Source: a virus
Lineage: Duplodnaviria; Heunggongvirae; Uroviricota; Caudoviricetes
Length of the DNA: 8,824 bases
IMG/VR virus record: IMGVR_UViG_2681813234_000007
Direction: 5' to 3' (one strand)
The position numbers and the translations under genes were made by a program. This document shows positions 840-8,824 of this stretch, in pieces. Position 1 is the first letter of the stretch; the number at the start of each line of letters is the position of its first letter. The notes under the pieces were generated by a model that ran no database searches, was not told the DNA's origin, and was given only the letters and a program-made list of their open reading frames with translations.

Positions 840-4436
<3,597 letters not shown>

Positions 4437-4481: not shown

Positions 4482-4778
4482 ATGGCACAAGGATTACAAT
4501 GCTGGAATAGTGCAGGGGTATTAGTAGTAGATCTCGGTGATTATAACATGCGGTATATGGGTACTTACTCAATTACTGCTACTACTGCATCAAGTTATAC
4601 TGTTACTGTACCCGGAATGAAAACAACAGGGTGGATTGCCTATTACGCACCATCTACGGATGTTTTTAATAATTGGTCTGTTATTTGTAATAATGGTTCA
4701 ATGACTATCATTTATCTACCAACGGGATCACCGTTTGCTGGTACGTATAGTTTCAACGTATATAAGTGGACGGTGTAA
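4482..4778 (+). CDS. small beta-rich tail-associated protein (candidate fibre/receptor-binding accessory), 98 aa
   Basis: AAGGA at 4471-4475, 6 nt before ATG 4482. Composition is rich in T/S/G/Y/N with no long hydrophobic helix. The N-terminal motif GLQCWNSAGVLVVD is shared with the next gene. Position is immediately after the J-like gene. Confidence 0.65.
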   Translation: MAQGLQCWNSAGVLVVDLGDYNMRYMGTYSITATTASSYTVTVPGMKTTGWIAYYAPSTDVFNNWSVICNNGSMTIIYLPTGSPFAGTYSFNVYKWTV

Positions 4779-4779
4779 T

Positions 4780-5436
4780 ATGTCAGGTTTTGAAGTTTAT
4801 AATTCTGCGGGTGCTCTGACGATTGACAGTACTAACAAGTCAATTCTCACAGGTGCTGTTAAGGCAATGGGTACACTGACGGATCAGGGGTACTACACTG
4901 GCTTTACGTGTGCTTTTGGTAATGGTGGTGCTCTTGGCTTCTTGCCACTTGCAACTATCGTGAACAGGAACACTACGCAGTACTGGTTTCAGATACAGAA
5001 AGATGGTGGCTGGTGTTTTCCCGGTGCTGAGTTGTTCCAGCCGGGGATAGGGCGATTCATGACGAGTACGCACACTGCAACGCCTACGTCTGGTTATCTC
5101 GATGTGTTTAATGCTTCTGGTACTTTGATATGGTCTGCTGCATCGGCGGCTACCATGCCCCGTATACAAGGTTTCTTAACCGTACCTGCTGCAACAGATT
5201 TGAGTACTGCAATCACAGTAACAAGCCCTGTTGCTAATCCCTGGTTTTGCTGGTCACAATGTCCGGGTAACTTAAGTGATGATGGGGAAACAATCGGTTA
5301 TTCGGGAATAGTTATTCGACGTAATAGCAGTACTTCATTCAGCTTGCAGTACGTTTCAAAGAACCAGAAAACATATCGTCAGGCAATGGGTAACAATGGA
5401 TTTCAAATTGCATTAGCTACTTTCACCGGATATTAA
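4780..5436 (+). CDS. tail-associated beta-rich protein, paralogous to the preceding gene, 218 aa
   Basis: The ORF track gives 4735-5436, but the ATG at 4780 sits 1 nt after the stop of the previous gene (TAAtATG) and begins MSGFEVYNSAGALTID, matching the N-terminus of the 98-aa protein. The motif recurs internally as DVFNASGTLIWS near residue 108. Confidence 0.75.
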   Translation: MSGFEVYNSAGALTIDSTNKSILTGAVKAMGTLTDQGYYTGFTCAFGNGGALGFLPLATIVNRNTTQYWFQIQKDGGWCFPGAELFQPGIGRFMTSTHTATPTSGYLDVFNASGTLIWSAASAATMPRIQGFLTVPAATDLSTAITVTSPVANPWFCWSQCPGNLSDDGETIGYSGIVIRRNSSTSFSLQYVSKNQKTYRQAMGNNGFQIALATFTGY

Positions 5437-5781: not shown

Positions 5782-6231
5782 TTATTTGTTGGTTAGTACT
5801 GCAATCATTGCATCAACACGATTAGGTGTTTGTTTATACCATAATGAATCTTTAGCCTGTCTGATGGCTTCCGGGTAATCTTTTGCTTTAAGGGCTACTA
5901 ACATCTTTTTGAATTTCTGTACCCCGCCTAAACCTAACTGGAACATCATTATCACAAGAAAATTTTTCCAGTCGTCAGGTAGCCAGATGTTGAGCGTTTC
6001 AACATTATGTATTGCAATAAGTATATCCTGGTCCAGTAGTCTATCTGCTTGCTCAATAGTAATACCATCTGGATACTTTTCACCAACATGTAGTAAATGA
6101 CCGTAGCCAATGGTTTCAAATCCTAGTGAATCTTTGTATGTCCAAAATTTGTTATCGTGAAAGTACTTCAATTTTGTTTGATAAGCGATAGTACCTTCAT
6201 ATTCTTTTAATCTGTCTTTTAGTTTACTCAT
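5782..6231 (-). CDS. endolysin, T4-type lysozyme (glycoside hydrolase family 24 muramidase)
   Basis: 149-aa minus-strand ORF. The translation aligns by eye with T4 lysozyme as I recall it: FETIGYGHLL vs YTIGIGHLL; LVIMMFQLGLGGVQKF vs LINMVFQMGETGVAGF; WYKQTPNRV vs WYNQTPNRA. Equivalents of the catalytic Glu/Asp/Thr are present (E12, D34, T40). AGGT lies 9 nt upstream of the ATG on the minus strand. Confidence 0.93.
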   Translation of the reverse strand: MSKLKDRLKEYEGTIAYQTKLKYFHDNKFWTYKDSLGFETIGYGHLLHVGEKYPDGITIEQADRLLDQDILIAIHNVETLNIWLPDDWKNFLVIMMFQLGLGGVQKFKKMLVALKAKDYPEAIRQAKDSLWYKQTPNRVDAMIAVLTNK

Positions 6232-6282
6232 TAATAAATACCTATAATAAATCTATATAGGGATATTTATTGTGAGAGTTAA
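6222..6282. promoter_or_regulatory. candidate divergent promoter region between the endolysin and the plus-strand operon
   Basis: Plus strand has a perfect TATAAT at 6243-6248 but a weak -35 (TTTACT at 6222-6227, 15-bp spacer). Minus strand has -35 TTAACT (plus coordinates 6277-6282), a 17-bp spacer and -10 TATATA (6254-6259). AT-rich DNA yields such matches easily, so this is tentative. Confidence 0.3.
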
Positions 6283-6721
6283 TAAAGCATGGGAGATGTT
6301 CGATACTGATATGTGGGATATGTCAGAAGTAACAGATGGGAATTACGTCTCGTTTATCTACATTATTCAGTTTCCAGATACTGGCGAGTACTATTTCGGT
6401 AAGAAGCAAATCTATAAAAAAGTACGCGACATAAAGAATTTAAAGGCTACTTCAGTTGAATCGAACTGGCCTGATTATACCGGTAGTAGTAAGTGCGTTA
6501 ATGAAATGATTGATGCCGGAATGCCATACACCAAAAAGATTTTGTACTGTGTCAAATCAGACGCAGAGGCAACGATTTTAGAAACGGCATTGATTAGCTA
6601 CTTTGGTTTACATCCTGACTGTTTAAATAAGGCAATAATGTGTAAGGCACGATTACCAAAGAATCGTTTAGATTTATTTAAAGTACTGCAAGATCTAATT
6701 GATATGTTGGGTGTGAGGTAA
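6272..6721 (+). CDS. GIY-YIG nuclease-domain protein (standalone catalytic domain, EndoII/Seg-like), 149 aa
   Basis: Degenerate GIY-YIG core: FIY (res 28-30), 10 residues, YFG (41-43), Arg52, Glu104 in ILETALI and Asn119. The spacing mirrors my recollection of I-TevI (Y6, Y17, R27, E75, N90). The track start is a GTG at 6272 with AGGGA at 6259-6263; alternative ATG starts at 6296 or 6314 are possible. Confidence 0.6.
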   Translation: MRVNKAWEMFDTDMWDMSEVTDGNYVSFIYIIQFPDTGEYYFGKKQIYKKVRDIKNLKATSVESNWPDYTGSSKCVNEMIDAGMPYTKKILYCVKSDAEATILETALISYFGLHPDCLNKAIMCKARLPKNRLDLFKVLQDLIDMLGVR

Positions 6722-6725
6722 ATAC

Positions 6726-7286
6726 ATGACAAGAATAACGGGTATAGATAACGCCACGAACTATATACAAAAAACAGGAACGAAGTTAGGTAAAAAGTTC
6801 CATGATGAAATCATCAAGCGTTCAAGAGTATTATCTATGAAAGTACAGGCAGATATGAACAATGCCGTAGACAAAGGTGCAGTACCTTTCACTCAACGAT
6901 CAATTCTATTCTTTTATAAAAAGCGGGGTAGTGGGGTTACAGCTACAATCATGGTCAAAGATGTTCAGGCACAGTACTTATATGGTGTACTGGTTGAACA
7001 AAAGGCCATTGATAAATTTGTACCGACTTCAAAAGCAAGACTAACGAAGCAGGGTAACATTAGTGGTCTGAAGAAAAACTTATCAAGTGGACGATACAAG
7101 ATTGTCAAAGGTAAGAACGGAAAAGAACGATTAATAGATACTGCTCAAAAGAAAAAACAAAAGCGTGTAATCGGTCTACGGGAAAGTAAACGCCGTAAAC
7201 TAATTTATGATTTCTATCAGGAAGTGAATGATGGTGTGATGTTAGTAATGAGTGGTATACAGGGAACATTCAAGGTAACAAGATGA
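6726..7286 (+). CDS. hypothetical protein, basic (K/R-rich C-terminal half), 186 aa
   Basis: GAGG at 6714-6717, 8 nt before ATG 6726, which is 4 nt after the previous stop. Its stop overlaps the next start (ATGA at 7283-7286). No TM segment and no motif I recognise. Confidence 0.7.
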   Translation: MTRITGIDNATNYIQKTGTKLGKKFHDEIIKRSRVLSMKVQADMNNAVDKGAVPFTQRSILFFYKKRGSGVTATIMVKDVQAQYLYGVLVEQKAIDKFVPTSKARLTKQGNISGLKKNLSSGRYKIVKGKNGKERLIDTAQKKKQKRVIGLRESKRRKLIYDFYQEVNDGVMLVMSGIQGTFKVTR

Positions 7287-7594
7287 ATTTTGATGAACAT
7301 TATGGTGAACTAACCAGTGAGATTAAACTTGATGGTAATACACCAGAGGCTAATAGTATGCCTATTCATAAATGCTTTCTTGGTAATAAGTTCAAGAAGG
7401 TACTAAAGAGTAAACAGATTAATATCGAGCATTTTATGAATGTTTGCTATGAGAAAAAACAAGATATAACGGACGGTTCAGTACTTGCATGGTCACTACA
7501 AGGTGATGAAATGGATGTGTACGTAATCGAACATAAAAAACTATTCGTTAAGGGAAAACACTTTTGGGTGTATTGCGTGGGGATCATTGAATGA
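7283..7594 (+). CDS. hypothetical protein, 103 aa
   Basis: Start overlaps the previous stop (ATGA) and its own stop overlaps the next start (ATGA at 7591-7594). Scattered Cys/His (C31, H50, C55, H84, H93, C98) do not form a canonical zinc motif. Confidence 0.65.
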   Translation: MNFDEHYGELTSEIKLDGNTPEANSMPIHKCFLGNKFKKVLKSKQINIEHFMNVCYEKKQDITDGSVLAWSLQGDEMDVYVIEHKKLFVKGKHFWVYCVGIIE

Positions 7595-7881
7595 TTGGAA
7601 TGATAATTGATTTAATCAAAACTGGAGTAGGCTTCTTCCAGAAGAAAGAACAAAGTAAGCAAGAGCTGGACGCACAGAACAGCCATGAACAGAACCAGAT
7701 CACACTTGAAGAAACGCGTAAGGGCTTCACTTGGCGACAGGGCTTAGGATGGGTACTGACGTTCATCATTCTATGGAACTACGTCATTGTGCCAGTACTG
7801 GCCTTATGTGGTGTAGTACTCCCCATCGTTCCACTTGATGAGATATGGAAAGTACTGATAATCTTAATCGGCGGGAGTTGA
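7591..7881 (+). CDS. small membrane protein, 96 aa (holin-like architecture, not confirmed)
   Basis: GGGGA at 7579-7583 with coupled ATG at 7591. A short hydrophobic N-terminus and polar linker are followed by a ~45-residue hydrophobic block (GLGWVLTFIILWNYVIVPVLALCGVVLPIVPL...ILIGG) that could form two TM helices. It lacks the charged C-terminal tail typical of holins. Confidence 0.65.
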   Translation: MIGMIIDLIKTGVGFFQKKEQSKQELDAQNSHEQNQITLEETRKGFTWRQGLGWVLTFIILWNYVIVPVLALCGVVLPIVPLDEIWKVLIILIGGS

Positions 7882-8571
7882 TTTGGACTCTCTAAACAAT
7901 ACTCGCCACGAAGTAAGCCATACTGAAGGGAGAATTTGGGTAAGTGCGAAGGCAGGTTTGAAACTCAAATTATTAAATTCCCAATTTTTCTTACGTGCCA
8001 TACCATTTACATCTTGATATGTGTTAATCATTTTATCGCTAATGATAATAAAATTGTAGTAATGTGTTATACATTTTTCAAGTTCGTTAGACTTGTTTGG
8101 ATGTACTTCAATGTCCCAAACTCGTAATATATCTAATTGAGATTTCAATTTAATTAGGTGATCTTTATAATCAGCATGCAAATCTTTAACCTTTGAGTTT
8201 TTACTTTGGTACTCTTTATCGGTGATGTTGAGATCTTTATTACCTAATGTTTCATACATATCATTGATGTAAGTATGTAATATTTCCGCCTTTACTTTCG
8301 CTTCAATAAAGTAACTAATATAAACGTTTGCTTGTTCAAAACCTTTTTCATTAAGTTTTGAATCTAACCATCTATATACTTTAAAAACTGTGATGAATGC
8401 TATTACTGACATTATAGTATCCATGATTGCTGATGTAGTAGAGCTATCATAACCATGAAGTAATAGTAAATCGGAATAAATTGGTATCAATGCACCAATA
8501 GCAAGACATGCAATATGTGAAAATCTTATTTTATTTCTTATTCTTTTTAAATTCACTTTCAAAGCATCCAT
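7864..8571 (-). CDS. membrane protein with two N-terminal TM helices and a ~170-aa C-terminal domain, 235 aa; function unknown (candidate accessory/moron gene)
   Basis: A long ORF in the most AT-rich part of the window, where chance ORFs of this length are unlikely. Hydrophobic segments are FSHIACLAIGALIPIYSDLLLL and IMDTIMSVIAFITVFKVY, and the remainder is K/N/D/E-rich. No clear Shine-Dalgarno precedes the ATG (plus 8569-8571). The 3' end overlaps the convergent 7591-7881 gene by 18 nt. Confidence 0.72.
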   Translation of the reverse strand: MDALKVNLKRIRNKIRFSHIACLAIGALIPIYSDLLLLHGYDSSTTSAIMDTIMSVIAFITVFKVYRWLDSKLNEKGFEQANVYISYFIEAKVKAEILHTYINDMYETLGNKDLNITDKEYQSKNSKVKDLHADYKDHLIKLKSQLDILRVWDIEVHPNKSNELEKCITHYYNFIIISDKMINTYQDVNGMARKKNWEFNNLSFKPAFALTQILPSVWLTSWRVLFRESKSTPAD

Positions 8572-8584
8572 ATAAATTTATTAG

Positions 8585-8613
8585 AAAGCCTGTATCTAGC
8601 ACAGGCTTTTTTT
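8585..8613. terminator. hairpin with flanking A- and T-tracts between the two minus-strand genes; canonical terminator in plus orientation
   Basis: AAAGCCTGT-atctagc-ACAGGCTTT stem followed by T7 (8607-8613) on the plus strand. On the minus strand it is preceded by A7 and followed by TTTCTAATAAATTT. It lies directly between the stop of the 8615-8824 gene and the start of the 7864-8571 gene. Confidence 0.55.
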
Positions 8614-8614
8614 G

Positions 8615-8824
8615 TTACCAATCCCAACTAACAGTAATATCCAACCCACGAAGGTTAGTATGTTCTGTACGCGTCGCTACGAGAACTATATCACCAGTTT
8701 CTTTCGAGACAATATCAAAGACTTCAATTTCAGTTTGACCCATTGTACCTTTCGTTCTAAAACTCTTTCTAACGTAGGTATAGTTCTCTTTTGGATAATT
8801 ACTTTCAAACAGCGATTCAGTCAT
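8615..8824 (-). CDS. 3' portion of a minus-strand gene, probably 5'-truncated by the window edge; product unknown
   Basis: Open minus-strand frame from the window edge to a stop at 8615-8617. The ATG exactly at 8822-8824 may be internal. The translation is beta-rich and polar (…IEVFDIVSKETGDIVLVATRTEHTNLRGLDITVSWDW) and I do not recognise it. Confidence 0.5.
   Translation of the reverse strand: MTESLFESNYPKENYTYVRKSFRTKGTMGQTEIEVFDIVSKETGDIVLVATRTEHTNLRGLDITVSWDW

Follow-up and report, generated by a model that had tools for sequence, protein, structure and literature searches.

The described systems closest to the locus treated here are membrane proteins by which prophages exclude other phages. 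The sieA gene of P22 has its own promoter and occurs as sequence types with mutual identities below 30% (PMC10883804), SieB stops macromolecular synthesis in superinfected cells (PMC10883804), and gp15 of HK97 is the textbook prophage-expressed inner-membrane exclusion protein carried on a compositionally distinct insert (PMC3594210). We describe here a gene that may belong beside them. It lies on the minus strand at positions 7864-8571 (stop codon included) of an 8,824-nucleotide stretch of a tailed virus (Caudoviricetes; IMG/VR record IMGVR_UViG_2681813234_000007), hereafter the window, which is the right end of a siphovirus-like temperate prophage of enterobacteria. The gene, called the target below, encodes a 235-amino-acid (aa) protein of an undescribed family, predicted to combine a two-helix membrane hairpin with a cytoplasmic helical bundle. 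We consider it possible, at a little less than an even chance, that the prophage expresses this protein and that it guards the lysogen against other phages.

The target is a real gene. It appears in the list of open reading frames (ORFs) of the window and was called on many contigs of our collection, and its ratio of nonsynonymous to synonymous substitutions (dN/dS) against six homologs, 0.16-0.30, indicates purifying selection. That it might be a chance ORF in AT-rich DNA, where some frames contain few stops, would agree with its having no family annotation; this explanation is already refuted by the dN/dS values, by the 113 protein clusters and the confident structural model described below and by the calls on many contigs, and we give it practically no credence. 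The exact protein is present in databases as a 'hypothetical protein' of E. coli or Enterobacteriaceae. Some of these entries are 182-aa forms, and Met50 and Met54 exist in the target. The true start may itself lie slightly downstream, at the GTG of codon 6 (8554-8556, minus strand; start at 8556), since the 92%-identical copy of E. coli 14EC007 has lost the ATG and kept AAAGTGA. As the first-pass annotation had proposed, the gene is transcribed against the neighbouring operon: it converges on the plus-strand late genes and overlaps by 18 nucleotides (nt) the 3' end of the last of them, which encodes a 96-aa membrane protein (7591-7881).

The gene had also been judged by eye to be AT-rich. This was confirmed by calculation (GC content 30.5%, 25% at third codon positions, the whole window having 38.8% and the tail genes 35.7-45.0%), but the gap is of about 8 points and not of the 10-20 points guessed. 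No sliding window of 708 bp left of position 7100 is as AT-rich as the target. In 15 related loci the GC content of the homolog is always 3-9 points under that of its own phage block, so that low GC, being found throughout the family, is not a sign of recent arrival in this phage.

A word-indexed search gave 15 homologs at 48-98% identity, and a profile search of 1.84 billion representative proteins extended the family to 113 clusters (E <= 1e-3). Nearly all members are of 200-280 aa and have in common an N-terminal module and the motif V-K-x-W-L-x2-K-x-N-x-K-G-F; some lack the first transmembrane helix (TM1) and retain the second (TM2) alone. On the strength of these searches the family appears to have no entry in Pfam, PHROG, NCBIfam or PADLOC, in line with the first-pass annotation, which had recognised nothing in the protein. 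Scans of 15 and of 72 members against Pfam and PADLOC gave nothing consistent; the odd single-member matches in the 72-member scans are probably due to a 1405-aa repeat protein, P0034, with insect-allergen repeats (E = 0). The best match of the target itself in PADLOC-DB 2.0 is NsnC, with an E value of 0.007 and 14 bits and with no matched stretch passing alone. Sequence searches of the PDB with two profiles returned only designed or coiled-coil helical proteins, and no solved structure related to the target was found. Short patterns run over one genome per species yielded no confirmed member. One further member, P0066 (461 aa), has an 8xMP domain (PF24838, E 2e-24) fused to the TM2-plus-bundle part of the family. 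This may reflect either a true association or a fusion introduced by gene calling; in one related locus, L008 (related loci are numbered with an L prefix), the homolog likewise has an 8xMP gene 4 kb away.

To describe the protein, we combined hydropathy, the positive-inside rule and AlphaFold2, and the three agree on the two N-terminal membrane helices proposed previously. Hydropathy delimits two segments, at about residues 18-40 and 45-67, and the positive-inside rule predicts a cytoplasmic N- and C-terminus for 102/102 family members, with a periplasmic loop of 8-9 residues. AlphaFold2 models reached a pLDDT (predicted local distance difference test score) of 75 with the 15-sequence alignment and of 91.8 with 75 family members, the latter with a predicted template modelling score (pTM) of 0.76. 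In this model, a basic amphipathic helix of residues 3-14 (8530-8565, minus strand, as for all parts of the protein), predicted to be cytoplasmic and carrying 6 lysines or arginines, precedes TM1 (family mean before TM1, 3.35). TM1 spans residues 17-38 (8458-8523), a predicted periplasmic turn residues 39-42 (8446-8457), and TM2 residues 43-67 (8371-8445), the last running unbroken into the first bundle helix as a single helix of residues 43-109. The polar domain of about 170 aa that had been noted after the helices is present, and is modelled as a cytoplasmic four-helix bundle (residues 68-218; 7918-8370). It opens with the juxtamembrane motif W68-x3-K-x-N-x-K-G-F, and helices 119-151, 158-184 and 190-218 complete it in antiparallel fashion. 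The C-terminal tail (residues 219-235; 7867-7917), whose last codons overlap the convergent 96-aa gene, contributes a strand (226-228) that pairs with a strand at 154-156 and ties the C-terminus to the bundle. The target is thus predicted to be an inner-membrane protein in which a two-helix hairpin is continuous with a cytoplasmic bundle.

Conservation is concentrated in the hairpin. The motif HGYDSSTTSAIMDT, which starts in the turn, is the most conserved segment of the close family: among 14 close homologs, residues 41-46 are 96% identical, against 53-55% for the bundle. Invariant positions of the close family in or just after the hairpin are G26, Y32 and D34 in TM1 (where L36 is invariant too), H39, D42, S44 and T45 in the turn region, and T52, W68, K76, F78 and E79 beyond it; the periplasmic turn region in particular combines conserved polar residues (D34, H39, D42, the serine/threonine run and D51). 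Across 75 diverse members W68 is invariant, while G26, W152 (in the bundle) and F226 are at least 90% conserved.

We then compared the locus across relatives, with a synteny sample comprising the Cronobacter locus L002, L017, L018, the E. coli strains 14EC007, G3/10 and FDN-24 and ten IMG/VR contigs; more distant family members were sampled in four contexts. All the sampled relatives share the same order: the tail-tip gene, an 88-aa gene, lysozyme, SegE, a 186-aa gene, (a 103-aa gene), the 96-aa gene, zero to two variable genes, and the convergent target. The order is the same whether the phage is integrated at mipA or at ybhA, and is kept even where the tail-tip protein is only 34% identical. 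At mipA, the prophage end reads 96-aa gene, target and g69 (a small gene described below), methyltransferase and DUF2188 genes, mipA. The horizontal acquisition suggested by the first-pass annotation is not supported by this picture as a recent event in this phage, the target being syntenic in all sampled relatives (at least 13) and AT-rich family-wide. Identity between targets (30-57%) does not track identity between tail-tip proteins (34-70%), which indicates exchange among relatives. These comparisons make the family a regular part of the lineage, passed between its members, and not a newcomer.

The gene is kept at this locus in the lineage, with one replacement. In the E. coli prophage AREA_C483, a different gene stands in place of the whole g69-target cassette between the same flanks, and the breakpoint falls exactly at the stop codon of the 96-aa gene. 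The gene found in this slot (L016:9311-9742) encodes 143 aa with an N-terminal signal peptide and has no family match. Other relatives have additional genes between the holin-like 96-aa gene and the target: AbiGi (2e-54) and a 227-aa gene in L018, and a second, diverged paralog of the target in L026, L027 and L030 (784-1589).

Homologs also occur outside complete phages. Homologs accompanied by g69 are found in small elements at ybhA, whose other genes encode a CI-like repressor and both a small and a large serine recombinase. The ybhA-site element of L004 also carries a type II-A retron (RT, reverse transcriptase, 4e-121; NDT 4e-85), and that of L008 carries DUF3800, an RT-associated SLATT protein (5e-29) and an 8xMP protein. 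Small serine recombinases, which have been proposed as markers of defence loci (PMC13552941), adjoin the target homologs in both L004 and L008. In the ybhA-site elements a piece of the 96-aa gene, from its 3' end, has stayed beside the homolog and shows their descent from phage DNA. Decayed remnants are reduced to the ybhA copy and the target homolog with one or two genes more and an insertion sequence (IS) element; the target homolog is intact there, and no phage structural or lysis genes accompany it. A Tlde1-domain (PF10908) gene stands beside the retained homolog in the ybhA-site remnants L001 (11735-12265) and L009 (12021-12551).

Insertion of the phage into the host ybhA gene (pyridoxal phosphatase), at about codon 72, leaves N- and C-terminal fragments, as seen in L002 (8633-9973), L004 (8361-9659 and 19805-20371), L001, L009, L018, L039 and L040. 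These relatives bring a full-length ybhA of their own (276-281 aa, 62-78% identical to the host fragments), placed directly upstream of the target homolog and just within the junction. The phage appears to replace the ybhA that its insertion disrupts. A HAD hydrolase next to homologs was considered as a functional partner of the membrane protein. As this HAD gene is the phage-carried full-length copy of ybhA, and is absent from the window cassette at mipA, a system of hydrolase and membrane protein was dropped.

More distant members are arranged differently. A T7-like prophage with a large serine recombinase has one of them (E 9e-10) in its cargo region, head-to-head with a second paralog that is itself preceded by a 66-aa ORF (the pair, L031-L033:6907-8696). 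The same combination of small ORF and family member, 67 aa followed by 263 aa, is found in L036. Metagenomic viral contigs L042 (6521-8684) and L043 carry three tandem paralogs, two of which lack the first membrane helix, and one further member adjoins DuOB, DUF488 and mSLOG genes. In complete E. coli genomes, a homolog is rare (4/5,426).

Co-location with defence systems, diverged paralogs and outliving of the phage form the pattern of a conflict gene. The earlier proposal that the target is accessory cargo of a moron kind therefore receives support from its context (the slot swap in AREA_C483, the retron, AbiGi and SLATT neighbours, the retention in remnants and the rarity in E. coli), and we regard accessory cargo in a phage-conflict setting as the reading that the neighbourhood favours.

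These same arrangements bear on a role in lysis timing, in which the target would be an antiholin, a holin partner or an unusually large holin acting with the 96-aa putative holin. Convergent overlap of the two genes amounts to 18-21 nt in the window and E. coli FDN-24, the genes are adjacent in G3/10, the target is a membrane protein present in all intact relatives, and holins of more than 200 aa exist, T4 holin T being one. The target faces away from the late genes, however; other cargo separates it from the holin gene in L018, L022, L025, L026 and L030, it remains intact in remnants without holin and lysozyme, a member is carried by the T7-like prophage that has lysis genes of its own, and no match to holin families was obtained in Pfam or PHROG. 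We hold this role to be improbable.

The first-pass annotation had named a SLATT-like class, and the target could be conceived as a divergent two-TM SLATT effector triggered by a nucleotide-signalling or reverse-transcriptase partner. The common outline, in which an N-terminal helix precedes a two-helix hairpin and the C-terminal part is helical, would fit, and 2/15 members gave a marginal match (E 0.1) to DUF4231, which we take to be a member of the SLATT clan. Against this, neither the 15 nor the 72 members matched any of SLATT_1 to SLATT_5 in Pfam. A genuine SLATT_5 gene, that of the RT-associated SLATT protein, lies 2.6 kb from the target homolog in L008, and hhalign of our 107-sequence family profile against it gave a probability of 0.2%. 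No cyclase, SLOG or RT partner is conserved next to the target, its neighbours varying by locus; the retron of L004 and the SLATT gene of L008 are separate units several genes away from the homologs. The sequence comparisons largely refute the proposal, and we see it as very improbable.

The other member of the window cassette is g69 (8615-8824, minus strand), found in the ORF list and through its homologs in relatives. It encodes 69 aa and is an optional, co-oriented upstream partner: in L004-L008 and L015 the target homolog has a copy, 70-88% identical, directly upstream of it, a 69-aa gene occupies the same place in L040, and g69 is absent from L001, L002 and L009. It gave no match in Pfam, PHROG, PADLOC or NCBIfam. 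A second small-ORF family, of 66-67 aa with 69% mutual identity and unrelated to g69, was encountered at L033:7759-7956 (minus strand) and L036:70-273 (plus strand), in both of these unrelated contexts directly upstream of 263-aa family members. The pairing of a small ORF with the membrane protein therefore recurs with non-homologous partners.

Between g69 and the target, a hairpin flanked by A7 and T7 tracts (8583-8611) was identified by folding and by conservation. Its folding energy is -13.2 kcal/mol on the plus strand (z -3.5), where U7 follows, and -12.9 kcal/mol on the minus strand (z -2.5), and it resembles a bidirectional terminator, with the clearer signature on the plus strand. It is kept in four contexts, with a conserved stem and changes confined to the loop. 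The hairpin at the upstream boundary reported in the first-pass annotation is therefore real; its supposed insulating role is another matter, as g69 had gone unmentioned. The structure is found in every aligned g69-bearing copy and not in the 27-29-nt gene-to-target spacers of loci without g69, which makes it internal to the g69-target cassette, and we rejected it as an outer boundary of that cassette. A scan for terminators missed this obvious hairpin and is thus unreliable here. Another hairpin (7870-7907, plus strand, -16.8 kcal/mol, z -3.1) covers the 3' end of the target together with the stop codon of the 96-aa gene; no T-tract follows it, and it is far weaker on the minus strand.

Taken with the context, these features lead us to favour, short of an even chance as stated, protection of the lysogen against other phages. 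Here we infer expression from the prophage and an exclusion phenotype, and each step that follows is conditional in the same way. An abortive mechanism is suggested by the size and variability of the bundle, by the way in which it is rigidly joined to a conserved polar hairpin, and by the occurrence of small partner ORFs and of paralog arrays; our preferred, though quite tentative, model for it is a sensor-effector of the SieB/RexB kind. The fast-evolving cytoplasmic bundle would detect a component or a consequence of an infecting phage, and the continuous TM2-stalk helix would transmit the signal. The conserved hairpin might then oligomerise or open, membrane function would collapse and the infection would be aborted. 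The small upstream ORF (g69 here, the unrelated 66/67-aa ORF in other subfamilies) could act as a modulator.

Several observations weigh against such protection. No significant match of the target was obtained in Pfam, PHROG, PADLOC or NCBIfam, none of the comparisons revealed homology to proteins with a known exclusion or abortive-infection phenotype, and the predicted fold is a generic four-helix bundle without a diagnostic match. Every intact relative sampled carries the target, which suits a lineage-specific phage function no less than sporadic defence cargo. Guilt by association is weak at prophage ends because many kinds of cargo collect there. Finally, promoter scans at the target found promoter-like sites at chance level, no commoner than in shuffled sequence; as no promoter stands out, expression in the lysogen is an assumption.

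Part of this evidence would suit a membrane protein of lysogenic conversion or phage fitness apart from exclusion, acting in envelope or stress physiology, on a host transporter, in anti-defence or in the establishment or maintenance of lysogeny. The diversity of cargo at prophage ends is consistent with it, the same slot holding a secreted 143-aa protein in another prophage, and so are the lack of defence homology of the target and the methyltransferase and DUF2188 genes that flank the window cassette. At ybhA the target lies 27-29 nt downstream of the phage-borne ybhA and may be co-transcribed with it. The repeated co-location with retron, AbiGi and SLATT argues the other way, and so do the paralog arrays and the fast divergence of one domain, traits that physiological genes show less typically than conflict genes. 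We judge this alternative unlikely.

The conserved hairpin itself raises a different mechanism, nested as a variant within the favoured exclusion reading: a block of injection as by P22 SieA or HK97 gp15, in which the hairpin would meet the tape-measure or ejection conduit of related phages at the inner membrane, DNA entry would stop and the cell would survive. The layout is that of P22 sieA, convergent on the end of a late operon, and HK97 gp15 provides a precedent for a moron-encoded inner-membrane exclusion protein (PMC3594210). Presence of the target throughout the lineage is expected for exclusion of kin, and the periplasmic turn and hairpin are the best conserved parts. Yet only 8-9 residues are exposed to the periplasm, the cytoplasmic bundle of about 150 residues is not obviously needed for such a block, members are also present in the unrelated T7-like prophage, and no sequence relation to SieA was detected (hhalign probability 0.2%). 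A block of injection therefore seems to us rather unlikely.

The proposed protection can be extended to the family as a whole. It might form a new anti-phage membrane class in which a rapidly diversifying cytoplasmic sensor, the four-helix bundle, is rigidly attached to a conserved membrane element of two helices (sometimes one), often with a small upstream ORF. The family would have multiplied into paralog arrays at prophage ends, each copy recognising a different invader, and at least two unrelated temperate phage lineages of enterobacteria would carry it. We put this forward as a doubtful generalisation. If protection by the target is borne out, a defence or exclusion family is missing from Pfam, PHROG, NCBIfam and PADLOC, and the attachment-site end of a little-studied prophage lineage of E. 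coli, Cronobacter and Klebsiella is the seat of a dedicated exclusion gene. With a confident structural model and one or two small genes, the prediction can be tested directly by cloning; should it fail, some other account must be found for a membrane gene that is syntenic throughout the lineage and has a conserved polar hairpin.

The remainder of the window is occupied by phage genes. On the plus strand these are a tail gene (216-839, from the ORF list), a DUF6950 gene (839-1240), the gene of the 1067-aa tail-tip protein (1233-4436) and a further tail gene (4482-5436), followed by the 88-aa membrane/coiled-coil gene. The lysozyme gene (5782-6231) is on the minus strand, inverted with respect to the surrounding late genes, and adjoins the plus-strand gene of a SegE-type GIY-YIG homing endonuclease (6272-6721). 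In L018 the lysozyme gene has the orientation of the late genes, which suggests an inversion or a homing-associated rearrangement. The genes of 186 and 103 aa lie between SegE and the 96-aa gene, a plus-strand gene at which the conserved phage backbone ends. Its product is a probable holin (phrog_2024, E 4e-11; weak match to GTA_holin_3TM), and the homolog of E. coli G3/10 is annotated in RefSeq as '3TM-type holin'.

The same 8.8 kb is present at 99.8-99.9% identity beside mipA in several enterobacterial chromosomes. When the window, the target and g69 were searched, as nucleotides and as proteins, against 50,697 deposited phage genomes, no match was obtained; for the tail-tip protein of the window, the nearest deposited phage is Escherichia phage DCP80, at 28% identity. 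In some hosts, IS3-family insertions in tail genes break this prophage (L010 and L015). Just past the right end of the window, the 46-bp spacer between the divergent methyltransferase and g69 genes (L012:9702-9747) contains an imperfect palindrome, AATACCCTTGTACA GTT TGTGTACGGGTATT, a candidate operator that could serve both genes.

Turning back to known systems, we compared the target with each of those named above, and hhalign was negative against all of SLATT_5, the 8xMP protein, lambda SieB, RexB, and P22 SieA and SieB. Like P22 SieA, it is a prophage-borne inner-membrane protein, sieA being convergent just after the late-operon gene 16, and the highly diverged sequence types of SieA, which acts alone, are a further likeness. 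Unlike the target, SieA has about 162 aa, three predicted TM helices and no large cytoplasmic bundle (PMC10883804). HK97 gp15, which is small and belongs to the YebO family, is encoded within the tail operon (PMC3594210), whereas the target has 235 aa, a large cytoplasmic domain and a place at the prophage end. RexB differs in having four TM helices against two; no rexA-like neighbour is present in the window, and the hhalign probability is 1.2%.

The SieB proteins of P22 and lambda, whose exclusion is of the abortive type, resemble the target in outline. They are of similar size (184-192 aa), their gene is transcribed against the surrounding operon, and in the sequence of P22 SieB, as in that of the target, the N-terminal region shows two hydrophobic segments and the C-terminal part reads as soluble. 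In the SieB system Esc, which protects the phage itself, is made from an internal start, and the target has in-frame methionines at positions 50 and 54. No match to the SieB family (PF14163) was found in Pfam, and hhalign gave 0.1% for lambda SieB and 1.0% for P22 SieB.

SLATT effectors resemble the target in having a two-helix hairpin with flanking helices and in their defence contexts. The target has a two-TM core as they do, but this core is common to many unrelated families, and the linkage of SLATT proteins to a SMODS, SLOG or RT partner is not kept in the target family. A protein of similar plan is encoded by orf1 of Haemophilus phage HP1 (205 aa, between int and cI in the lysogeny region), with two N-terminal membrane helices and then a helical domain. 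Foldseek retrieved it from BFVD (E 0.01, probability 1.0, TM-scores of only 0.39/0.44), the structure-based searches having been made with models other than that of pLDDT 91.8, and hhalign aligned the turn, TM2 and the W-K juxtamembrane region at 54% probability. This similarity is below any safe threshold, and HP1 orf1 being itself without a known function, the match adds no functional information. The 4HB_MCP bundles of the chemoreceptors Tar and Tsr share a generic fold at 4-10% identity; theirs is periplasmic and lies between the membrane helices, whereas that of the target is predicted to be cytoplasmic and to follow both.

When set against the marks of a moron (PMC3594210), the locus shows extra DNA that differs at the same junction, as in AREA_C483, yet every other sampled relative has a family member there; its GC content is distinct, as reported above. 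As for a promoter and terminator of its own, the target has the conserved hairpin with its T and A tracts, and promoter-like sites at the level of shuffled sequence. Membrane genes of this moron-like sort are a familiar sight at the ends of prophages; the family itself is undescribed, and the target is a concrete candidate for a new exclusion protein.

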